Positions 1 to 10,567 of a stretch of 10,567 nucleotides of DNA are shown one piece after another (positions within the stretch are counted from its first letter, which is position 1; each line of letters begins with the position of its first letter). The notes beneath the pieces are model-generated. The model saw only the letters and a program-made list of their open reading frames with translations, was not told where the DNA came from and did no database searches. The DNA comes from a virus (taxonomy: Duplodnaviria > Heunggongvirae > Uroviricota > Caudoviricetes). Position numbers and translations under genes: made by a program. The DNA is taken from the IMG/VR virus record IMGVR_UViG_2802429231_000001, one strand, 5' to 3'.

Positions 1-28
1 TAATATCTAAAACAAAAAGGATAAAAAT

Positions 29-535
29 ATGAAATTATATAAGTCATTGTATAGCTTTTTATTAATGTCCTCTTTTCTGCCATTATCAGCAATGGCAGGT
101 TCTACCGTTTGGACGGTAGGAGGTGAGCAAGGGTGGAGAGAAATCTCTGCAACCAATGACGATGGTTATACAATTAACTTTTCTTGTGATGCTGGAGCAA
201 GGGAAGGTTCCGAAGATCATATAGCTGGAAGAAATTTGTATGTAAGTGGAGGGAAAGAGAATGCTGATTTTTCTACACGCGACACAATTTCTCGTAAAGC
301 TGATGTAATTACCTTAATTGTTGGTTCGGATAGCTTTAATATTGGTACGCAAAACACTGCTCCAAATCGTAGGGAATGGTATTCTTTTTGGAAGTCAGCG
401 TCAGCCACAAAAGAAAAAAACATGGATGTATATATCGGATCGCGTCGAATTACATCATTCTCTCTTGATGGAATTTCAAGTATTTACAAGGAAGCTAAAA
501 ATGATGGATGTTTAAAGCAAGATGACGGTGAATAA
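29..535 (+). CDS. Small secreted/periplasmic protein of unknown function (168 aa precursor, predicted Sec type I signal peptide, two Cys in the mature part)
   Basis: ATG at 29 preceded by AAGGA (18-22). N-terminus MKLYKSLYSFLLMSSFLPLSAMA|GS has a basic n-region, hydrophobic core and A-M-A cleavage motif (nt 29..97). There is no Cys at the cleavage site, so it is not a lipoprotein. Lower G+C than the phage genes downstream. The last 14 nt overlap the start of the next ORF. Confidence 0.6.
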   Translation: MKLYKSLYSFLLMSSFLPLSAMAGSTVWTVGGEQGWREISATNDDGYTINFSCDAGAREGSEDHIAGRNLYVSGGKENADFSTRDTISRKADVITLIVGSDSFNIGTQNTAPNRREWYSFWKSASATKEKNMDVYIGSRRITSFSLDGISSIYKEAKNDGCLKQDDGE

Positions 536-1706
536 AGTGAAGGATATTAAAAAACTTGCACTTGGCTCAGTAAGCGATCTCTATAATAGAGATTCAAATA
601 TTACCTGGCGTGATAATTTAAGTAAAATCAAAATGCCAGGATATACATCGGCAAGTGATTTATTAAAATCAGAATATGCTTCTAATAATTTGGTTAGACA
701 GTTGGCAGAACTGCAAAAAAACGCAATCATTCCATCGTATAGAGAACATATGGCAAACTTGCAAGAACAGTTAAGAATAGGGCGGCTAGCTCAAGAACAA
801 ATAGCAAGATTGAATTTGCAATCGTTACTTAGTGATTCTGTTAAAAAACAGCTTGCGAACATGACGAGCTTGAGAAGAATAAATAGCAAGCATCGTGAAT
901 TTCTTGAAATTCTACAGAAACAGGCCAAGGTTTATCCCCCGCATGATGCAAATAAATACATTCAAATGCTAAGGAAGCAGGCAGAAATTGCTATGCCGTT
1001 ACGAAACCAGTTCGAGATGCTTAATAAGCAAGCTGGTTTAAATAACATGCAAGCAATACTTAATGAATTGCGACAAAATGTAAGTCATAAGATAGATTTA
1101 AACAATGAAATAAAAGAATCATTAAAACAATATACCCTAGCGCAAAAGGCTTCATTACATCAAATAATGGAGCAAAGTCTTTCATCAATTGCACAGGCTT
1201 ATGTCGAAGGTGCTATTGAAACATCTCACAACGAAAGTGATGTTCAAGACAAAGGATTAAATAAATCCAGTTCGACGTTCATTGATTCATTTAAGTCGCT
1301 CCCTCACCCGCTTCAGTTTATTATTATGTGGCTTTTAACAGAAGTGGTGCTTGGCGCTATTGCTGATTATGCAAAAGAACAAATCTTATCGCAAATACAC
1401 AAGACAGAATCATATTCTGTATCCCTATATGAGGATGCACCAATATCAAAACAAAAATTAATTAAAGAAAACACAGAAATTAAGTGGGAAGATCTCAATG
1501 GTTTTAGGTTTATAACTGGTGATAACGTAAGATTACATGTCAGTCCTTCTTTAAATAGTGAAGTGATTGAATGCATTGGCAAAAACACAATTGTTGCTAT
1601 TTTAGATAAGAAAGATCGTCAATGGCTTTACGTGCAGGTTAAATCAGGGGATGAGTTTATTACTGGTTGGATTACACGAACATACACAAAGCCTCTTAAG
1701 GCTTGA
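522..1706 (+). CDS. Single-pass membrane protein: N-terminal coiled-coil region, one transmembrane helix, C-terminal SH3b-like domain (394 aa)
   Basis: Long ORF in the most AT-rich part of the window. Heptad-like Q/L/K/E-rich helical region at about nt 670..1210. Hydrophobic segment LQFIIMWLLTEVVLGAIA at nt 1311..1364. C-terminal segment DNVRLHVSPSLNSEVIECIGKNTIVAILDKKDRQWLYVQVKSGDEFITGWITRTY (about nt 1500..1690) matches the bacterial SH3 (SH3_3) pattern of NVR, a hydrophobic core, W-x-x-V and G-W near the end. ATG 522 overlaps the upstream ORF; an in-frame GTG at 537 is an alternative start. Confidence 0.7.
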   Translation: MTVNKVKDIKKLALGSVSDLYNRDSNITWRDNLSKIKMPGYTSASDLLKSEYASNNLVRQLAELQKNAIIPSYREHMANLQEQLRIGRLAQEQIARLNLQSLLSDSVKKQLANMTSLRRINSKHREFLEILQKQAKVYPPHDANKYIQMLRKQAEIAMPLRNQFEMLNKQAGLNNMQAILNELRQNVSHKIDLNNEIKESLKQYTLAQKASLHQIMEQSLSSIAQAYVEGAIETSHNESDVQDKGLNKSSSTFIDSFKSLPHPLQFIIMWLLTEVVLGAIADYAKEQILSQIHKTESYSVSLYEDAPISKQKLIKENTEIKWEDLNGFRFITGDNVRLHVSPSLNSEVIECIGKNTIVAILDKKDRQWLYVQVKSGDEFITGWITRTYTKPLKA

Positions 1707-1819
1707 ATTTTATCTCCGCATCTTCGGATTGGGTGTTGATGACGATGTGCTACTTGAAGCACTTGAGTTGTTTTAACGTAGTATCTGAAATGTGTAGACT
1801 GACCGGTAACAAATGACAA

Positions 1820-2427
<608 letters not shown>

Positions 2428-2437
2428 GGTCGTTGAT

Positions 2438-3049
2438 ATGGGACTTAATGTTGCATCAGTAAAGTCTTATATATCTTCGGCATTAACGACGACATTATTT
2501 GGCTCCGGCGTTGGTGAGCGGGAAGTTGGTAAGCTGACGTCAATCATCATGAACAAAATGCTGTTCGCGCAAGGATGGCAGTTCTCTGTCGAAGTTGATG
2601 GGCTGGAGGGGGCAGACTTCTTTGCCAAAGACATTACCTACCACGATTACAGCATCGAATATGAAATGATTAAAATCGGCGGAGGGAATATCCTTCAGCC
2701 AACGGAGCGTTCGCCTGGGCAGATAACAATGATGGTCAGGGATACCGGTGATGGCCTCGTTTTGGACTGGTTTAAGACGGCAAAAAGTCGGGTGATCAAT
2801 CCTGACGGCACCGTGAACATACCGTCTAAATATTTGCTCAATGTGCGTATTTATCGGTTGCTGTCTTCCGGTTTAACCAAACTGGAAAATGAGATGACGG
2901 TATTCCCGGTTACTACCGGCGATGTCACCTATGCGCGGGATCAGGTCACGGAATTTAAGTCATTCCCAATGACCTTCGCATTGCACAGCACGTTTAACCA
3001 ATCCTCAAGTTCTTTGGCTTCCCTTCTGGGCTTTAGTTTTTCTCTTTGA
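2438..3049 (+). CDS. Tail tube protein of a contractile tail (T4 gp19 / Afp1 / Hcp-like tube family), 203 aa
   Basis: SD TGAGG 8 nt upstream. Motifs WQFSVEVDG...ITYHDYSIEYEMIKIGGG...SPGQITMMVRDTGDGLVLDWF parallel the conserved tube blocks recalled from Afp1 (YRFxVxVxD...IEYRDG...PGQ...ITLRKG...LFDW). Position is immediately upstream of the chaperone-position gene and the tape-measure gene. Confidence 0.7.
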   Translation: MGLNVASVKSYISSALTTTLFGSGVGEREVGKLTSIIMNKMLFAQGWQFSVEVDGLEGADFFAKDITYHDYSIEYEMIKIGGGNILQPTERSPGQITMMVRDTGDGLVLDWFKTAKSRVINPDGTVNIPSKYLLNVRIYRLLSSGLTKLENEMTVFPVTTGDVTYARDQVTEFKSFPMTFALHSTFNQSSSSLASLLGFSFSL

Positions 3050-3063
3050 ATTAAGGAGCAAGG

Positions 3064-3945
3064 ATGCTTTTACCCCTTTTCCCGCTACCATCGCGGCCAA
3101 CTGAATTGATCCAGTTCCGTCAGCCAAATATTGCTGATGCGATGCGTTTCAACTCGATAACACCGGAGGAACAAGAACAACAGACAACGGCATATTTAAA
3201 AGCCTTGCTGGCTGAACCCGCGAAACATGATCCCCTGACATGGACGGCGCAGGACCGGATTACCGCGTTATGGTGGATATTTACCGGCTCCCGTGAAACA
3301 CCGGTCGAGACATTCACCTACACCTGTAAACATTGCGGTAAAGAGCATTATTACGATTGCGATATGAATGCTCTGGCTGAAGATATCCAGGTCCTGGAAG
3401 TGGAACCTTTCATTGACGATATTGAGGTGTCTGTAGAGGGAGTGCCTTATCAATGGCGTATCGTGCCGCTTGATGGTTGGGCAATGGAAATGCTGGAGAT
3501 GCGCCGTGCAGCATTGCCACCTGAAGACGACGCGGAATTCAAAGAAGCGATCGTTGATTTGCGTTTTTGGGAATTCGCTTATCAGTGTGAGCTTTATAAC
3601 GATGTTAGCGGTACTCGTGAAGATCAGGCTGAGCGTCGTTATGAAACGATTAAACGGATGGCCATTGATACTGAATTTATGAAGCTGGCGGCACACATCC
3701 GACTGGCTCATGAAAAGCTCGAACATGGTTTACCGTGCTACATCGATAAAGGTGAAATGCGTCTTCGTCTCCCGCCGCATAAATGCCCAAACCAGGATAA
3801 AAAGGAGTCCACAGAGGGTGCGTATACCCGTCTGTGGGTGCCCTTTCGGGCTACCGACTTCATTCCACAGGTGGGGATTGAAAAGCTATCAGACCTTAGT
3901 GTCCAACCTGGTTTTGTATGGGGGTATACCGATTCAGGACGCTGA
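3064..3945 (+). CDS. Cys-containing protein of unknown function (293 aa) in the position usually occupied by tail assembly chaperones, between tube and tape measure
   Basis: Strong SD AAGGAG 6 nt upstream of ATG 3064. Contains a C-K-H-C-x6-C cluster (TYTCKHCGKEHYYDCD) plus further Cys, suggesting a possible metal-binding site. The functional call is positional only. Confidence 0.55.
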   Translation: MLLPLFPLPSRPTELIQFRQPNIADAMRFNSITPEEQEQQTTAYLKALLAEPAKHDPLTWTAQDRITALWWIFTGSRETPVETFTYTCKHCGKEHYYDCDMNALAEDIQVLEVEPFIDDIEVSVEGVPYQWRIVPLDGWAMEMLEMRRAALPPEDDAEFKEAIVDLRFWEFAYQCELYNDVSGTREDQAERRYETIKRMAIDTEFMKLAAHIRLAHEKLEHGLPCYIDKGEMRLRLPPHKCPNQDKKESTEGAYTRLWVPFRATDFIPQVGIEKLSDLSVQPGFVWGYTDSGR

Positions 3946-4026
3946 AAGGCTCACTGAATCCTATGCGTTTTTCCTGTTGGAGAAACTGGAAGAAAAACTT
4001 AAACCGAAACGGTAGGCGATAAGATC

Positions 4027-7000
4027 ATGGAAAGAAAAAACGCCAACATTGACGATGTTATAAGGACAGTTGAAACCGCCAGCGCAAAAGAGCTGGAAGA
4101 GCTTGCTGGTATCCGGGAAGCTGTTGAAGATTTGAAAGGTGGGCGAGTTGCTACTGTTGATCCTGTCTCTCGCAGCGTGTCGGCATTAAATCACACAATC
4201 GAAAATTCCCGGCCTGACTTTGTGGCCAAAGCGCCATCAGTAGACCCTATTGTTGACGCAATGAAACGGCTTAATTTAGGGGACGTTTCTCGTGTAGTTC
4301 AGGAAGATGTTGCTCAACAGGAACAGCGGGCCAAATCAACCACACCAAATGGTAAAAAACGACGCAGGAAGGCTATACCAGAGGATGTAAAGGCGCAACG
4401 GACCGAAGCAGCCGAACACGCTCGCGAAATGTTCGGTCAAAAAGGCGGTGCGCAAAAAAGCCAAAACCAACGCGATGCGCGTGGTCGTTTTATTGGAAAG
4501 TCAGGGAGTAAGGCCGCAGCGGAAGATGCCCGTGCTGAACGAGCAGAAAAGGCCAGGCGAAAAGAGGATGATGAGCGTCTAAATGCTGAATCAGGTTTAT
4601 TAAAAAAACTGTCAAAAGTAGCTGAAGGCATAGGTAACCCTTCAGAGACTCGTGCCGTCGATGCGTTAGGTTATGCCGTTGCTGGTCCATTGTGGGCCGC
4701 AGGGAAGGAGCTTGGCGGGATATCAAAAGAAGTTGGTGGATCGCTTAATGGTGCCAGAAAGTCTATTGCCGATGTGATTCGTGGCAATGACGATAACAGC
4801 CGTAGAAAAGGTTTTTTTAGGCGTAAATCGCAAAATAGTGCCGATGTCGTTCAGGTTAACACCCAAAAACGGACGGTTCAGGAACTTCAGGATCAGACCA
4901 GCGAAATTAAAGATGGCAATGACAAGATTCTCAGCGCCCTTGATCAGATAGCCAAAAACACCGGGAAAAAGAAGGGCGGCTTGCTGTCCAAATTATTTAG
5001 CCTGTTAGGGAAGGGGGCCGGTGGCGTCGCGTCGTTGTTAATGGGGCGTGGCATGCTGAAAAAAGCTGGAGCACTCGCTTTTGGCGCTCTGGGGGCAAAG
5101 AAACTTGTAGGAATGCTACGCGGTGGTGGCAAGAAGACTCTCGCCCATGAAGGCGGAGATTTGGCTGCCCGGGCAGCAGGTAAACTTGGATTAAAGGCAG
5201 TTGGTAAAGGGGCGTTACGCGCAATTCCCCTAGTCGGCACAGTGGCTGGAGGTATTTATGATGCGGTAACCGGTTGGAATGATACAGAAGCGCAACGTCG
5301 AGCGTTTGGGCTTAAATCAGGACAAGATCCATCATTCCAGCAAAAAGCCGCTTATACGTTAGCTAATGTTCTTGATATGGGGGGACTGGTATCTGGTATT
5401 AGCAGCGCCATTGGTGAGGTTCTCAAATCACTTGGATTTGAGGATATCGGCAATATGTTGCAATCATTTTCGACGGAAAGTATTGCCCTGGCCATTGATA
5501 GTGGGATTACCAACTTAGAAACATATATTTCTAACCTTGGCGACACCATTTCTACCAAGTTCGATGATTACACAGCAAAGATTGGTGATGCTGTTTCAGC
5601 ATGGTTTAGCGATACATCTAATAAGCTGCTTGAAAAGCTGGATGCCATCAAAGACTTCTTTACTGTCGATAACCTGAAACAGGTTTTCAGTGATGCAATT
5701 GATAGTGCAATTGATTTCATTAAGAACCCAGGGAAACACATTAAAGAGGCGGCTGGTAATATTTGGGATGGGGTTAAAAATTTACCAGGTAAAGCATTAG
5801 ATGCAGCGGTTGATGCCGTTAAAAATACCCCTGCGGCAATGATTGTATCAAAAATACCCAATCCGATCGGCGAGGCTAATGCGAAAGAAATCACTCCAGA
5901 GTTAAAAGCTCCGGTTAATAGCCACCAGGGGACATCTGATTCTAAAACTGAATCCGATGCCAAACAGACTAATATTGCTGCCCGCGTGATAAATGCGGCT
6001 CTGGATATGGCGAAAGATAGCAATAAAACAGTTAAAGAAACTGCTAATCAGATTATCAATGCAAATGCCGTAGAAACAGGAAATAAAGCAGCACAAACAA
6101 TTGATGCTGCCTTGGGGCAGTCTGCTACAGGTAAGGAGGAAGCATTAAGTGCATATGAGATAGATAAACGTCGATTTAACAATGGCAAGGATGTTTCTTT
6201 GCCAAAATTAAATGCTGCCGGATACCAATGGATTTCTGACAATGCCGATTATTTTGATGAGCTTGAACGTAAGTATGGGCTTGAAAAAGGGATTCTGTCA
6301 GCAGTTGCATCCGCAGAGTCTAGTGCAGGCCAGAGAACTGGAAATCCAGTAGACAAAAACGGGAACAAACTTTCATCTGCCCTTGGGGCTTTTCAGATCA
6401 CTAAAGGTACAAGGGAGGATCTTGGACTCAGCGATGCTGATGCCATGGATACACGAAAAGCAGCTGATGGTGCCGCCAGATACCTAAGTATGCTGATGAA
6501 CCGTTATAACGGTGATCAGGGTCGTGCAATAGCTGCCTATCATGCTGGTATGGGGCATGTTGATAAGGGGAGAGTAGTCGCAGGTACCGGCGAATATGTT
6601 ACTCGTGTCAGAGGGTATCAGCAGATGCTCAATAATGGTGCCGTTTATGGCTCTAAGGTAGATCATAGCGCACCAGCAATTTACGAAAAGATACCTGATA
6701 ACGCCGTTATCGATCAGTCTACTGGCCTGGCGTTTACCCCTGGTGATAGCCCGTTTGAGAAAGGCGGTCTGGTAGACAAAATCGGCAATGCTGTTGGCGT
6801 TAACGATCTGGTCAACAAATTCATGAATGGCCGGGGTATGCGTCGGGAAGTCGTTCAGGGAACGCTCGAAGAACGTGCACGAGGGAAGGGGACCGCAACA
6901 GCAGCTGGCAATGTGTATGTTGATACTCCGATGCCAGTTGAAGAGGCGCGTCCGGTGGCCAGCAACTCAAGTTACTTTGACCAACTCGGCGCACAAATGG

Positions 7001-7401
7001 GGATTGATGGACTATTCGATAAACTCCGCAACTCGCCGGGGATGCGGAAAAATAATGCGCTTGAACCAGCCTCCACGTCCCAGGTGACGACTGCCGCCAA
7101 CGATTTGCAGCAACCAACCGGTCGTATGCAGATAGACGGACAGGTTATTAGTGACCTTGGCGGCTCCGGTGCCAAGCCGACAATGCAGTTGGCTGATAAT
7201 ACCGTTTCACTTGATGGTGAAACGAAGCGGCTGTTTGCGCAGATGACCTCATTGCTTGCCAGGATTGAAGAGCACACCAAAGACTCGGCGAAAGGCCAGG
7301 GAACTGTCGTAAAGGTCAGCACGCCTCAGCCGGGCGTTATGCGCACGGTACCACTGTCAATTGATGATCCGTTGATGAATGACTACGCGAGAGTTGATTG
7401 A
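4027..7401 (+). CDS. Tail tape-measure-like / injection protein with embedded soluble lytic transglycosylase (SLT) domain, 1124 aa (architecture resembles phage P1 Sit)
   Basis: Longest ORF in the window. N-terminal charged helical region; K/R/E-rich low-complexity stretch (about nt 4335..4610); Gly/Ala-rich hydrophobic glycine-zipper-like segments (about nt 4965..5280); SLT domain at about nt 6200..6620 with ...SAVASAESSAGQ... (putative catalytic Glu codon 6316..6318), GAFQIT and AAYHAG motifs typical of family 1 lytic transglycosylases. The SD is weak. The stop TGA 7399..7401 overlaps the next start. Confidence 0.8.
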   Translation: MERKNANIDDVIRTVETASAKELEELAGIREAVEDLKGGRVATVDPVSRSVSALNHTIENSRPDFVAKAPSVDPIVDAMKRLNLGDVSRVVQEDVAQQEQRAKSTTPNGKKRRRKAIPEDVKAQRTEAAEHAREMFGQKGGAQKSQNQRDARGRFIGKSGSKAAAEDARAERAEKARRKEDDERLNAESGLLKKLSKVAEGIGNPSETRAVDALGYAVAGPLWAAGKELGGISKEVGGSLNGARKSIADVIRGNDDNSRRKGFFRRKSQNSADVVQVNTQKRTVQELQDQTSEIKDGNDKILSALDQIAKNTGKKKGGLLSKLFSLLGKGAGGVASLLMGRGMLKKAGALAFGALGAKKLVGMLRGGGKKTLAHEGGDLAARAAGKLGLKAVGKGALRAIPLVGTVAGGIYDAVTGWNDTEAQRRAFGLKSGQDPSFQQKAAYTLANVLDMGGLVSGISSAIGEVLKSLGFEDIGNMLQSFSTESIALAIDSGITNLETYISNLGDTISTKFDDYTAKIGDAVSAWFSDTSNKLLEKLDAIKDFFTVDNLKQVFSDAIDSAIDFIKNPGKHIKEAAGNIWDGVKNLPGKALDAAVDAVKNTPAAMIVSKIPNPIGEANAKEITPELKAPVNSHQGTSDSKTESDAKQTNIAARVINAALDMAKDSNKTVKETANQIINANAVETGNKAAQTIDAALGQSATGKEEALSAYEIDKRRFNNGKDVSLPKLNAAGYQWISDNADYFDELERKYGLEKGILSAVASAESSAGQRTGNPVDKNGNKLSSALGAFQITKGTREDLGLSDADAMDTRKAADGAARYLSMLMNRYNGDQGRAIAAYHAGMGHVDKGRVVAGTGEYVTRVRGYQQMLNNGAVYGSKVDHSAPAIYEKIPDNAVIDQSTGLAFTPGDSPFEKGGLVDKIGNAVGVNDLVNKFMNGRGMRREVVQGTLEERARGKGTATAAGNVYVDTPMPVEEARPVASNSSYFDQLGAQMGIDGLFDKLRNSPGMRKNNALEPASTSQVTTAANDLQQPTGRMQIDGQVISDLGGSGAKPTMQLADNTVSLDGETKRLFAQMTSLLARIEEHTKDSAKGQGTVVKVSTPQPGVMRTVPLSIDDPLMNDYARVD

Positions 7402-7757
7402 TGGCCAACAATAACGAAATTGATCCTTTGCTGACGCTGGAGTTATCCGGCGTAAAAACGTATGAGTCCCAGGAGGAGGCCTGGGGCGCTCGTTTATATG
7501 AGTGGCTAAACACTTATCAGGGTGAGGTATACGGGGATCCGTCATGGGGCAATGTTTTACCGCAGTTTAAACACGAACCGACCAACTTGTCGCATGTTCA
7601 AATTGCGGTTGAGGCAATGCTGTTGCAAAAACTGACGATAGATTTACCTGACATACCGATTTCTGGCTTGTCAGTAGCCGAGGGAGATGCTTTTGATAAG
7701 TTGAAAATATCCATTCGTATCAGGGATATAACTATCACACAGGACGTGGTGCTATGA
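7401..7757 (+). CDS. Small baseplate protein, possibly GPW/gp25-like wedge protein (118 aa from ATG 7401; an in-frame TTG at 7398 is also possible)
   Basis: ATG 7401 overlaps the upstream stop by 1 nt (TGATG). Size and position match gp25/GPW-like proteins. The stretch LNTYQGEVYGDPSWGNVL...HEP loosely resembles the gp25-family block (L-T-x-x-GER-x-x-P-x-FG ... EPR). Weak motif support only. Confidence 0.5.
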   Translation: MANNNEIDPLLTLELSGVKTYESQEEAWGARLYEWLNTYQGEVYGDPSWGNVLPQFKHEPTNLSHVQIAVEAMLLQKLTIDLPDIPISGLSVAEGDAFDKLKISIRIRDITITQDVVL

Positions 7758-9187
7758 GTAAAACAACACCGACTAAAGACAGTATTCGTGCAGAGTTTGA
7801 AGAGCTTGTCGAGAAAGATTCATTCTGGTCGAAGTTTGTCGGCTCTCAATTTGTCTCGATGCTGACATTGTTTATTACCCAGATTGTCTACAGGTGCTTT
7901 CAGTATGCCGATGCGGCGCTGGCTGAAGGCTTTATATCGACCGCGACGCGGCGTTCCTCTATCCTGGCAGCGGCAGAAACGAATAGTTACGTTGGTACCA
8001 AGCCAACACCGTCATCGGGGATGATTGAGATCACCGCCACAAGTGAAGATGCCCCAGCGGTAATTCCCAAAAACATGCCTTTAATATCTGACGACCAGTA
8101 CCCTTACATGACTATGGATGTATGCAGGTTGGTTGACGGCACCGGTACGGTAGAAGTGGCACAGTTGGAAATCCAGGAGGTGACATATACCGTTACGGCT
8201 GCCAAAGAATTTCTGGAAGTCGTGTTATCAAAGGCTCTCACTGCTGTCTGCTATAAGCTGGAAGTATTCGTGACGACCGATGGTAAGACCACGCAGTGGT
8301 CTTCCAGCACAATGTTCCGGTTAGCTGGTAGTAAAAGCCAGGTCTACGTTGAGTTTTATAAACCATCCGAACAGTTGGGTGTCCGATTCGGCGATGGGCT
8401 AATTGGGCAAATACCGCCAGAAGGCTCGACAATTACGCTTAAGGTATGGTGCACCAACGGCGATATAACCCTGGTTGCTGGCCAAAACCTGACTCCTGTT
8501 GATTCTGCGGCTAATTTAGCTAATTTGATTTCAGTTAAGACAACGACACCTATAACCGCAGGTACCGATGCTGAAACAACGGAGATCACACGTAACCGTG
8601 CACAATATTACCTTGCCTATGATGATCAGGTCGTATGGGGCGGGGACTATACGTATTTTCTGGTGCGTAACATCCCGGGACTGTCCTGGGTAAAGGCATG
8701 GGGCGAAGGCCAGCAAGAGAAATTAGATGGTGCTTATAATGTTCGGAATATCAATAAGATATTTATTTCAGGATGGCATCCAAACAAAAGCCAGTCAGAG
8801 CTTGAAGAAATGATCCTGGCCGCCTTTAAGAAGGTGCCGAATGAGTTGAACAAGAAATTCTCGTATAAAGAGGTCAGAAAACTACCCTTTAAGATCACCA
8901 TCACTGGGCGGATATCGGCAAGCCTGACCATTGAGAACGTGACTGATGAGCTGAAGTCGGCACTGGAAACAAAATTTGGGCGTGACTCAACTTTCTTTGA
9001 TCCGAACCGTGTCGGCAAGTACATCCTAATCAAGAAAAAAGACGTTTGGGCATTTATCGAAACGCTGGGTTATTTCCGCGACTTTTATCTGGAATTTGTC
9101 GAGTGGAATGAGTCCAACGGCTTTTACGATTTCGTTTATCTGGATACAGAAAACTCCACCTTTAATATTTCGTATGAGGAGGAGTGA
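7754..9187 (+). CDS. Putative baseplate J-like (gp6/gpJ-family) baseplate protein, 477 aa
   Basis: ATG 7754 overlaps the upstream stop (ATGA). Lies immediately after the gp25-like gene, as in P2 (W-J) and Mu (gp46-gp47) baseplate modules. Size is compatible. No motif was verified by eye. Confidence 0.55.
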   Translation: MSKTTPTKDSIRAEFEELVEKDSFWSKFVGSQFVSMLTLFITQIVYRCFQYADAALAEGFISTATRRSSILAAAETNSYVGTKPTPSSGMIEITATSEDAPAVIPKNMPLISDDQYPYMTMDVCRLVDGTGTVEVAQLEIQEVTYTVTAAKEFLEVVLSKALTAVCYKLEVFVTTDGKTTQWSSSTMFRLAGSKSQVYVEFYKPSEQLGVRFGDGLIGQIPPEGSTITLKVWCTNGDITLVAGQNLTPVDSAANLANLISVKTTTPITAGTDAETTEITRNRAQYYLAYDDQVVWGGDYTYFLVRNIPGLSWVKAWGEGQQEKLDGAYNVRNINKIFISGWHPNKSQSELEEMILAAFKKVPNELNKKFSYKEVRKLPFKITITGRISASLTIENVTDELKSALETKFGRDSTFFDPNRVGKYILIKKKDVWAFIETLGYFRDFYLEFVEWNESNGFYDFVYLDTENSTFNISYEEE

Positions 9188-10023
9188 TGCAGCGTTCCTG
9201 GTTTAATAACCGGCTTACATCAGCTAAGCAAAAGTCATTACTTTATAAATCATTGGCTGATTTGGTTCAGTCAATGATGGACACCTTTGTTGACCCATGG
9301 TTGGAGCGAATTACCAACCGGAAGTCTATTTTCTCCATGAGCAAGGAGGATCTGGAGACTAGGACAAATGAACTTGGCCAGTTTTTTACTATCAGAACGT
9401 CGAATTCATCTTCCGTTCCGATGTTGTTACAACAGCGGTTTGATGAGATCCATTTTAAGGGTACTGAACGCCCTATAAACCAGACAATTTATCGCGAATT
9501 TAACGGTATATCGGTTTTATGGGATCCCATATATGCTCCGGTGGACTTTGAACGTCATCCCTATGGCACGGTCCTGATTCCAGAAAGCACACTGGAAACC
9601 ACCGGCGGCACATTCGGCGAGATGTTTCTGACTTCCAGAGGAATGATCAGTATTCCCATAAACGACCTGGCCCGGACAATGGGTATTACTGGAACGATAG
9701 ATCAGTCCGCAATTACAGAAGAAATTCTCAGAAAGTTTAATCAGTTCGTAAAGCCTCTACTGCCACTGCATATAGTGTTTGATGGGCTTACGCTCTATTT
9801 GTCGGTTGTTGTAAATGAACAGGCCGACATGATCACTTTGAATGAGATTTCTGATACCGAAAAAGCATTCTGCTGGTTTGAAACTTCGGATACAACTTCG
9901 CTTACTGAAGTTACGTCGATTAACGCCCCGATCACTGCAACGCCGGGCGGCACTATTGTGAAAGCAACGCCTACGTTTGATCGCACCCGCGCAGATGATT
10001 TGCTGTTGGATAGCGATGCGTGA
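9187..10023 (+). CDS. Putative baseplate or tail-fibre attachment protein (P2 gpI-like position), 279 aa
   Basis: ATG 9187 with GAGGAGG 4-5 nt upstream; overlaps the upstream stop (TGATG; an in-frame GTG at 9184 is also possible). The call is positional only. Confidence 0.5.
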   Translation: MQRSWFNNRLTSAKQKSLLYKSLADLVQSMMDTFVDPWLERITNRKSIFSMSKEDLETRTNELGQFFTIRTSNSSSVPMLLQQRFDEIHFKGTERPINQTIYREFNGISVLWDPIYAPVDFERHPYGTVLIPESTLETTGGTFGEMFLTSRGMISIPINDLARTMGITGTIDQSAITEEILRKFNQFVKPLLPLHIVFDGLTLYLSVVVNEQADMITLNEISDTEKAFCWFETSDTTSLTEVTSINAPITATPGGTIVKATPTFDRTRADDLLLDSDA

Positions 10024-10026
10024 CAA

Positions 10027-10051
10027 TCACCCCGTCCGCAGGGCGGGGTGA
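10027..10051 (+). terminator. GC-rich hairpin (8-bp stem TCACCCCG/CGGGGTGA, 9-nt loop) starting 4 nt after the 9187..10023 stop; possible weak terminator, attenuator or RNA-stability element
   Basis: Read directly: 10027..10034 is the reverse complement of 10044..10051. It is flanked by the direct repeat TGACAA (10021..10026 and 10050..10055). There is no clear U-tract downstream, so intrinsic termination would be weak at best. Confidence 0.3.
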
Positions 10052-10101
10052 CAAGTTACTTATCTTACAATGAGGCTTCACAACATTGATTAGGGAAAAT
10101 C

Positions 10102-10545
10102 ATGTCTGACGTCTCAACAAACCTCTATAAGAGTCAGTTGTTGGACTATTACTATCAGCGGCGCGCTGAATCGTCCATTAACAAAGGCTCTCGATTTTTA
10201 ATCAGCAAGGCCGTTTTCGGTACCAGTTCACTGGTTACTAAGAAAGGAGATGGCACTTATGAGATTGGAGAACTGCCAAAGGCTTTCGATCTGGCAGAAC
10301 TGACCAGTCAATTTTGCACCATCAACCTCGTCCCAACCTACTCAGGCGGGATAATTACTGTCCGAATGGACCTTGATCAAAGTCAGTTGCAGGAAGGGAA
10401 AAACTACCCATTCAACACTCTGGTTGTTCTGGATAACGAGAATAAGCCAATCGCCATTATTTGTGTCCAGGAAGACTCGCTGTATGTGGGCAAAACATAT
10501 ACCGCTGAACCGCCCCGGTTTTCCTGGAGAGTATTTTACCTGTGA
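10102..10545 (+). CDS. Small protein with tail-fibre collar-like (P2 gpH N-terminal-like) domain, 147 aa; probable tail fibre or fibre-attachment component
   Basis: ATG 10102 with GGGA upstream. The blocks FLISKAVFGTS...TINLVPTYSGGIITVRMDL...FNTLVVLDNENKPIAIICVQEDSLY resemble the tail-collar fibre domain found at the N-terminus of P2-type tail fibres, as recalled from memory. The ORF terminates at 10545, 22 nt before the window end. Confidence 0.5.
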   Translation: MSDVSTNLYKSQLLDYYYQRRAESSINKGSRFLISKAVFGTSSLVTKKGDGTYEIGELPKAFDLAELTSQFCTINLVPTYSGGIITVRMDLDQSQLQEGKNYPFNTLVVLDNENKPIAIICVQEDSLYVGKTYTAEPPRFSWRVFYL

Positions 10546-10567
10546 ACTCAGGCTGCCAGCTCATCAT

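Follow-up and report, generated by a model that had tools for sequence, protein, structure and literature searches.

An AT-rich cassette with a YfjT-family gene and a membrane SH3b gene in the sim slot of P1-like phage-plasmids, a candidate exclusion module

A 10,567-nucleotide stretch of viral DNA (IMG/VR record IMGVR_UViG_2802429231_000001; the whole analysed stretch is called the window below) starts with two overlapping open reading frames, ORF1 and ORF2, which were found to occupy exactly the sim slot of phage P1, between immI (c4/icd) and pmgC and downstream of the start of simA. The two frames are the distal genes of a three-gene AT-rich cassette and, as judged by comparison of related elements, the cassette is one of at least eight non-homologous alternatives that can fill this slot. 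By analogy with SimC, the cassette may be made by the prophage and act in the envelope to exclude superinfecting phages, a possibility to which we give tentative preference.

P1-like phage-plasmids are common in Escherichia coli and Salmonella and carry resistance genes. To our knowledge, the entry of a P1-like element into an occupied cell is poorly understood beyond C1/C4 immunity and the Sim work of 1989-90. As far as the citing papers relate it, P1 sim confers superinfection exclusion by way of a protein that is exported and processed (Kliem & Dreiseikelmann 1989; Maillou & Dreiseikelmann 1990, cited in PMC9177967, PMC2409434). The sim genes are dispensable for lytic growth of P1 (PMC10695390).

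Results

The module lies in the sim slot

Positions 1808-10505 of the window share about 98% identity with phage P1 and with the P1 relatives P7, RCS47, SJ46 and JL22 and span pmgC, tub, pmgB, sit, pmgA, bplA, gene 16 and the start of R; by this identity the window is assigned to a P1-like phage-plasmid. The first 1900 bases, which include the whole module, were tested separately and were 100% identical to the circular 95.7 kb E. coli plasmid pCFSAN004176P_03. At least 80% of this 1900-base stretch was present in 24 complete E. coli genomes, and many of the carriers are Shiga toxin-producing E. coli (STEC) or livestock isolates. At the DNA level, neither P1 nor a set of 50,697 phage records yielded a counterpart of window 1-1807, and ORF2 gave no tblastn match to these records. 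The ORF1-ORF2 module is absent from P1 and P7.

G+C content is 35.9% in window 1-1807 versus 47.1% in 1808-10567. In the initial annotation of the window, hand counts of about 40% for ORF1, 30% for ORF2 and 50% for the downstream genes were reported. These were roughly right, but the value for ORF2 was too low: we obtained 37.9% for ORF1, 35.0% for ORF2 and 45-49% for the seven downstream genes pmgC to gene 16, with 27% (ORF1) and 29% (ORF2) G+C at third codon positions. The separate acquisition that had been deduced from the composition agrees with the absence of the module from P1 and its replacement by non-homologous cassettes in most relatives.

In P1, the stretch from the immI operon (c4, icd, ant) to the late promoter LPsit/pmgC is taken up by the superimmunity genes simA, simB and simC. 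In pCFSAN004176P_03 the same interval contains a gene for a 163-amino-acid (aa) protein, called here SimA-long, followed by ORF1 and then ORF2. The SimA-long gene is located just upstream of the window (7449-7940 of locus L002) and is named 'simA domain protein' in RefSeq. Its first ~48 residues, signal peptide included, are the counterpart of residues 10-52 in P1 SimA (52 aa). Because this N-terminal part is shared and both proteins match PHROG 3933, a family of 213 positions, P1 SimA looks like the stub of a longer secreted protein. With SimA-long upstream, and with ORF1- and ORF2-family genes that each occur without the other (see below), the two frames do not make up the self-contained two-gene system that had been envisaged.

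On the left of the cassette, the DNA from icd to the start of simA, with c4, the P1c4 and P2c4 promoters, the C1 operator and the predicted promoter PsimA, is 96.6% identical between P1 and pCFSAN004176P_03, and divergence from P1 begins at about codon 43 of simA, inside the 5' end of the gene. On the right, all cassette types converge at window 1808, just upstream of the -22 box of LPsit. The cassette is flanked by two conserved promoter regions. No promoter-like site was found in the 88-nt spacer between SimA-long and ORF1. Located upstream of LPsit and absent from P1 and P7, the module is not a member of the P1 late tail operon.

The cassette resembles simABC in its slot, orientation and upstream regulatory DNA, in the common 5' end of simA, and in being dispensable cargo of low G+C content. 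All simABC products have N-terminal signal sequences. Among the differences, SimA is full length (163 aa) in the cassette and a 52-aa stub in P1, and ORF2 is a predicted inner-membrane SH3b protein that is absent in P1. P1 Sim had been named as a precedent when the window was first annotated, and the location of the module exactly in the sim slot provides independent positional support for an exclusion-type role.

The sim slot accepts alternative cassettes

That the sim region is variable has already been recognised: simABC is listed among eight hypervariable low-G+C regions of P1-like phage-plasmids, the alternatives not being described (PMC9603915). The window cassette is one allele of this known variable region. 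For a survey of the alleles, 80 IMG/VR loci and 5 genome loci were retrieved via PmgC, and the icd-pmgC interval of all 85 was classified (Table 1). The slot has hypervariable contents between flanks of 97-100% identity. All alleles are AT-rich (36-42% G+C), and their products are exported proteins, lipoproteins or membrane proteins.

Table 1. Cassette types found between icd and pmgC
Type	Contents	Loci
A	SimA stub + SimB + SimC, P1 type	14
B	215-aa SimA-long + YfjT-family protein of 158 aa (also the arrangement of phage Ro157c2YLVW)	20
C	163-aa SimA-long + ORF1 + ORF2, the type of the window	10 (3 more truncated by contig ends)
D	116-aa protein with three transmembrane segments + YfjT-family protein (28% identical to ORF1) + ORF2 of 344 aa (68% identical)	6
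E	As D, with ORF2 replaced by a membrane protein of 297 aa on the reverse strand	3
F	173-aa lipoprotein rich in glycine + secreted, charged protein of 179 aa	18
G	SimA-long variant + SimC-like protein (34% identical)	1
H	Contents of F + 419-aa membrane protein	1

In PLSDB, 506 plasmids encode a PmgC of at least 95% identity. There were 141 plasmids with SimC, 177 with the YfjT family and 205 with the type F lipoprotein, three classes that roughly partition the P1-like plasmid population of the database; the ORF2 family was found in 64. The allele of the window (ORF1 at least 80% identical) is present in about 34 PLSDB plasmids.

YfjT-family genes without ORF2 are seen in cassette types B and E. 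Conversely, ORF1 matched no Citrobacter plasmid in PLSDB, and the ORF2 relatives encoded by Citrobacter plasmids have no adjacent YfjT-family gene. Either family can be found in the absence of its partner, and ORF1 and ORF2 do not form an obligate pair. The initial annotation had called for a survey of related prophages; the locus proved to be variable, with at least eight cassette types, but the pair was not always found together.

Exchange was also seen within a cassette type. In one type C locus (L057), ORF1 is 95% and ORF2 53% identical to the window proteins, the first 10 residues and the SH3 end of ORF2 being conserved and the middle swapped. Two loci, L038 and L043, carry truncated or rearranged copies. 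In L043, which is of type C, an extra ~1.4 kb between ORF2 and pmgC holds a fragment of a second YfjT-family gene (3644-3811), a trace of serial cassette exchange.

Several other occupants of the slot were noticed. The one most common in PLSDB (205 plasmids) is the 173-aa glycine-rich lipoprotein, called 'YfgH-like' in one record. The second type F gene encodes a secreted, highly charged (TolA-like) protein of 179 aa with an SSWW end, and both type F proteins, encoded at L007 3856-4920 and also at L033 2172-3295, are uncharacterised. The additional 419-aa protein (L033 3611-4870) has N-terminal hydrophobic segments and a proline/lysine-rich repeat; its C-terminal region may resemble DUF559/Vsr-type endonucleases. 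Cassettes of types D and E open with the 116-aa protein, SimA-long being absent from that place. Their icd-proximal region (L008 2300-3240; L063 150-1062) has no blastn similarity to the c4/PsimA region of P1, and these elements may carry a different immI specificity.

ORF1 is a predicted periplasmic protein of the YfjT family

The Sec-dependent export of ORF1 proposed earlier was confirmed at the level of prediction. Residues 1-23 (nt 29-97) form a canonical Sec signal with MKLYK, a hydrophobic core and an AxA site (AMA/G), and in 14 homologues (27-51% identity) the residue at -1 is always alanine. Cysteines C53 and C161 do not vary either among homologues in this identity range, in keeping with a periplasmic disulfide. 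The AlphaFold2 (AF2) model of ORF1 has a mean predicted local distance difference test score (pLDDT) of 83.7. No significant relative of this fold was found among solved structures; the best neighbours, all weak, were the periplasmic proteins IalB and MotY. The ratio of nonsynonymous to synonymous substitution rates (dN/dS) was 0.09-0.14.

Over its whole mature domain ORF1 is assigned to PF27224 (YfjT), as a remote homologue of K-12 YfjT. The Pfam library with which ORF1 was scanned had no PF27224 model, and the assignment comes from precomputed annotation, which places PF27224 on a cluster 100% identical to ORF1 and on ORF1 relatives, and from hhalign, which aligned ORF1 with K-12 YfjT at a probability of 97.6% (E=4e-12, 24% identity). 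ORF1 also matches PHROG 3429, a family of unknown function. An exhaustive profile search yielded only 61 clusters at E values up to 1e-3, so the family is small; its members are mostly ~150-aa proteins of P1-like plasmids and jumbo phages, and none of the 61 clusters bears a functional name.

The K-12 members of PF27224, YfjT and YkfB of the cryptic prophages CP4-57 and CP4-6, are, like ORF1, secreted proteins of ~150-170 aa, and the yfjT gene lies, like ORF1, beside other envelope-protein genes on a mobile element. In CP4-57 (L091 10446-11616) it closes the gene run ypjK-yfjS-yfjT, whose products are a small protein, the inner-membrane lipoprotein YfjS and the YfjT protein; this run may be an analogous envelope module. 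The function of PF27224 is unassigned, so membership in the family gives no mechanism for ORF1.

ORF2 combines a variable helical region with a conserved SH3b domain

ORF2 overlaps ORF1 by 14 nt, and the two frames were found as first described. In RefSeq the start of ORF2 is placed at the GTG at 537, which shortens the protein to 389 aa. By Kyte-Doolittle analysis there is a single hydrophobic span and no N-terminal signal was found. An N-in/C-out topology is suggested, because the N-side flank of the transmembrane segment is the more basic one.

Residues 334-388 matched the Pfam model SH3_3 with E=1.1e-5 and 26.0 bits, 1 bit short of the gathering score of 27. The same family (PF08239) is precomputed on nearly all ORF2 homologues, and the AF2 model has seven beta strands at 328-391 (pLDDT 55-70) and helices across most of 25-303. 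The assignment of a C-terminal SH3_3 domain is thus borderline yet consistent. Of the earlier description, a membrane protein with a C-terminal SH3b domain stands, with N-in/C-out suggested, but the cytoplasmic coiled coil is weakly supported because the confidence of the model is low (mean pLDDT 41).

The two parts of ORF2 evolve differently. Its SH3 end (GWITRTYTKP) is nearly invariant, and the N-terminal ~250 residues differ in sequence and length between family members, which range from 344 to 481 aa. The dN/dS values were 0.09-0.21 for the SH3 part, 0.33-0.38 for the transmembrane segment and linker, and 0.40-0.64 for the N-terminal part. Besides short LxKQA-like repeats there is no conserved motif in the N-terminal region, and self-BLAST of the window ORF2 detected no significant internal repeats, short LxKQA motifs only. 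Taking into account that the frames are intact in homologues down to ~30% identity, the dN/dS values indicate that ORF1 and ORF2 are real genes, both under purifying selection, and not chance open reading frames.

ORF2 matches PHROG 7086, a family of unknown function, and its family is confined to phage-plasmids of Enterobacteriaceae. Sequence and profile searches of the PDB with ORF2 and with its SH3 part gave insignificant matches only, and neither an enzymatic nor a pore-forming domain was detected in the Pfam/NCBIfam and PDB searches. In the Pfam and NCBIfam libraries SH3_3 was the sole match for ORF1 and ORF2. The pair had not been recognised at first as any named phage or defence family, which has to be revised since each protein belongs to named families (PF27224/PHROG 3429 for ORF1, SH3_3/PHROG 7086 for ORF2), all of unknown function. 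The profile and structure searches recommended at that time thus returned family names (YfjT, SH3_3), but no characterised homologue of ordinary function, and no significant fold relative for ORF1.

The C-terminal ~60 aa of ORF2 correspond to the SH3b (SH3_3) domains of endolysins and NlpC/P60 hydrolases and, weakly, to the SH3 part of an amidase PHROG. In contrast to those enzymes, ORF2 has no catalytic domain; it possesses a membrane anchor instead, together with a long helical region that varies. Binding of the ORF2 domain to peptidoglycan is an assumption.

Relatives of ORF2 (447-481 aa, 36-55% identity) are encoded by Citrobacter plasmids of ~97 kb that are not P1-like (L092 3258-4601, L093 2484-3929). 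They are solitary, oppositely oriented genes flanked by VRR-NUC and HNH endonuclease genes, and some of them have tandem 19-residue repeats (SERITKLAQGSTIADSVSL) of variable copy number in the N-terminal region.

SimA-long and Sit share a motif

Residues 122-168 of SimA-long and residues 921-963 of Sit, just after the SLT domain, share a motif of ~45 aa (49-51% identity) with the pattern ..N.PGMR...VQGTLEERARG.G.., and a weaker second copy is found at Sit residues ~991-1010. A 65%-diverged variant of SimA-long (L059) has kept the motif, as has Sit of Cronobacter phage JK004. On the strength of this resemblance SimA-long could be a periplasmic decoy of Sit.

In the window, the SLT segment of Sit (6086-6693, aa 687-889) is replaced; it has no blastn match to P1 and 37% aa identity. 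This SLT allele was found in 11 of 74 related loci and accompanied the type C cassette in 6 of 9 loci (Fisher p=0.003, with no correction for linkage). The allele was seen with types A and G as well, and cassettes that bear ORF2 are also found beside the P1-type allele. Because of the latter combination, a coupling between cassette type and Sit allele was rejected as evidence: the association is loose, and linkage explains it equally well as function. The connection with the SLT domain that had been suggested initially remains speculation.

Other features of the window

The coordinates of the features are collected in Table 2. A perfect 10-bp inverted repeat (TCGTAGAATC, 13 nt, GATTCTACGA) at 1821-1853 overlaps the -10 element of LPsit and precedes the start of pmgC. 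It is kept in P1, and in the other cassette types there are single-base changes in one arm or in the spacer. An Rfam scan of the window gave no match. In RefSeq NZ_CP012491.1, BplA (window 7754-9187, equal to L002 15754-17187) is labelled 'bleomycin hydrolase', which is probably a misannotation, because the Pfam domains of the protein are gp6-like and Baseplate_J.

Table 2. Features of the window
Feature	Position	Strand	Remarks
3' end of the 88-nt spacer between SimA-long and ORF1	1..28	+	Shine-Dalgarno AAGGA at 17-21
ORF1, 168 aa, predicted YfjT-family (PF27224) periplasmic protein	29..535	+	Signal peptide, profile, AF2, dN/dS
ORF2, 394 aa, predicted inner-membrane SH3b protein	522..1706	+	Helical hypervariable N-terminal ~250 aa
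Predicted transmembrane segment of ORF2, aa 263-284	1308..1373	+	Kyte-Doolittle 19-residue mean 1.83; hydrophobic segment kept in homologues
SH3b domain of ORF2 (Pfam SH3_3, borderline), aa 334-388	1521..1685	+	Nearly invariant in homologues of 30-100% overall identity
Terminator-like hairpin (AAGCCTCTTAAGGCTT, then T-rich tail) overlapping the ORF2 stop codon	1689..1704	+	Consensus scan only
Right cassette border and P1 late promoter LPsit	1808..1829	+	-22 box AAATGACAA at 1811-1819; -10 TAGAAT at 1824-1829; P1 homology from 1808
Conserved P1 late tail/baseplate operon pmgC, tub, pmgB, sit, pmgA, bplA, gene 16	1861..10023	+	~98% P1 identity except sit 6086-6693; outside the module
Motif common to Sit (aa 921-963) and secreted SimA-long	6787..6915	+	BLASTP E=6e-9 and 8e-8

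Discussion

What makes a role in exclusion plausible for the cassette is its position and the envelope localisation of its products. We favour this role because the cassette lies in the same slot as simABC, and sim confers exclusion in P1; because the slot is hypervariable between 97-100% identical flanks and every allele encodes envelope proteins; because purifying selection acts on ORF1 and on the SH3 domain, with fast evolution in the N-terminal part of ORF2; and because SimA-long has a motif in common with Sit.

In the proposed mechanism, ORF2, anchored in the inner membrane, would hold its conserved SH3b domain to the peptidoglycan/periplasmic face, and ORF1 and SimA-long would be its soluble partners in the periplasm. 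Jointly, the three proteins would obstruct the penetration of peptidoglycan or the formation of an inner-membrane channel by the tail tip of the incoming phage and its Sit transglycosylase, with SimA-long, through its Sit-like motif, as a possible decoy. The target would most likely be P1-like phages, blocked after adsorption and before their DNA reaches the cytoplasm. In this detailed form, with an SH3b anchor, a YfjT-fold protein and a SimA-long decoy that mimics the C-terminal motif of Sit jamming the entry of P1-like tails, the picture, which would amount to a mechanism not described before, is unlikely to be correct, and the same must be said of the wider notion joined to it, that the sim slot is a hotspot into which periplasmic blockers of genome delivery with differing mechanisms are swapped.

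Small membrane, periplasmic or lipoprotein blockers of phage entry are represented by T4 Imm and Sp, P22 SieA, HK97 gp15, TP-J34 Ltp, T5 Llp and phi80 Cor. Sp inhibits the tail lysozyme of T4, and Ltp and gp15 act on the tape-measure protein. The action of Sp, Ltp and gp15 is an analogy to the action on Sit proposed for the cassette; the PHROG search showed no homology to the cassette proteins. We know of none among these blockers that uses an SH3b domain or a YfjT-type protein.

Several observations weigh against exclusion. In BLASTP comparisons, ORF1 and ORF2 showed no similarity to SimC, nor ORF1 to SimB (E at least 1.9), and the PHROGs differ; homology to SimA, too, was rejected for both ORF1 and ORF2. 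ORF1, ORF2, SimA-long and SimA/B/C gave no match in PADLOC-DB 2.0 at E values up to 0.1, and no exclusion-annotated PHROG was matched by the cassette proteins; the PHROG matches of known function were weak tail or amidase ones only. A position in a hotspot is equally compatible with any other cargo, and the Citrobacter relatives of ORF2 sit in a different gene context. The part of ORF2 that evolves fastest is predicted to be cytoplasmic, an unexpected place for a blocker of injection to diversify, and the ORF2 model is of low confidence. PsimA, from which the cassette would be expressed in the lysogen, is a predicted weak promoter.

Alternatively, the cassette may be a module of lysogenic conversion, which alters the physiology of the host envelope (for example peptidoglycan or inner-membrane stability, tolerance of stress or colicins, colonisation) and has no part in phage exclusion. 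The exported or membrane-bound, AT-rich products resemble those of classic morons, ORF1 is remotely homologous to K-12 YfjT, which adjoins the lipoprotein YfjS in CP4-57, and its weak structural neighbours IalB and MotY are periplasmic. In addition, many carriers are STEC or livestock isolates, and ORF2 relatives stand alone in other phage-plasmids. We nevertheless rate conversion as the rather less probable of the two, though with appreciable weight: an exclusion gene is the sole occupant of the slot that has been characterised, alleles that turn over so extremely between almost identical flanks are found more typically at conflict loci, and the Pfam, NCBIfam and PHROG searches revealed no homology to a known fitness or virulence factor.

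The hypervariable, repeat-containing and predicted cytoplasmic N-terminal part of ORF2 (dN/dS 0.40-0.64) next to an invariant SH3 domain, and the occurrence of ORF2 alone in other elements, could also be explained if ORF2 were the membrane sensor-effector of an abortive-infection-type defence against unrelated phages, with the variable helical domain as effector or specificity element and ORF1 as an accessory. This is improbable in view of the negative PADLOC search, the failure to detect an enzymatic or pore-forming domain, and an N-terminal region with no conserved motif beyond the LxKQA-like repeats.

Still less probable is a service to the lytic cycle of the phage itself, in tail assembly, lysis control or as injection helpers. 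The genes are adjacent to pmgC-tub-sit on the same strand and weakly matched profiles for tail-fibre assembly and tail chaperones (E 0.009-0.05), as well as an amidase PHROG in its SH3 part. However, they are missing from the viable phages P1 and P7 and from most P1-like phages, LPsit and a terminator-like hairpin stand between the module and the late operon, the equivalent sim genes are non-essential, and the composition of the module is foreign. Non-functional DNA hitch-hiking at a recombination hotspot would suit the known low-G+C variable region and the damaged copies in L038 and L043, but is very improbable given frames that are intact across alleles of 53-100% identity, dN/dS well below 1, and the conservation of the SH3 domain and of the ORF1 cysteines.

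With exclusion still the preferred reading, the sim slot emerges as a place where three main cassette classes, together with rarer ones, would act as alternative modules of exclusion or envelope conversion, with no known mechanism. If exclusion should fail, the locus would still illustrate cleanly how cassettes are exchanged between two bounding promoters. What was an old single-gene curiosity, sim, becomes a testable system of alternative modules, and if ORF1 proved to be active, this would be the first function for the YfjT/YkfB family, which belongs to the y-ome of K-12 and to the cryptic prophages of E. coli.

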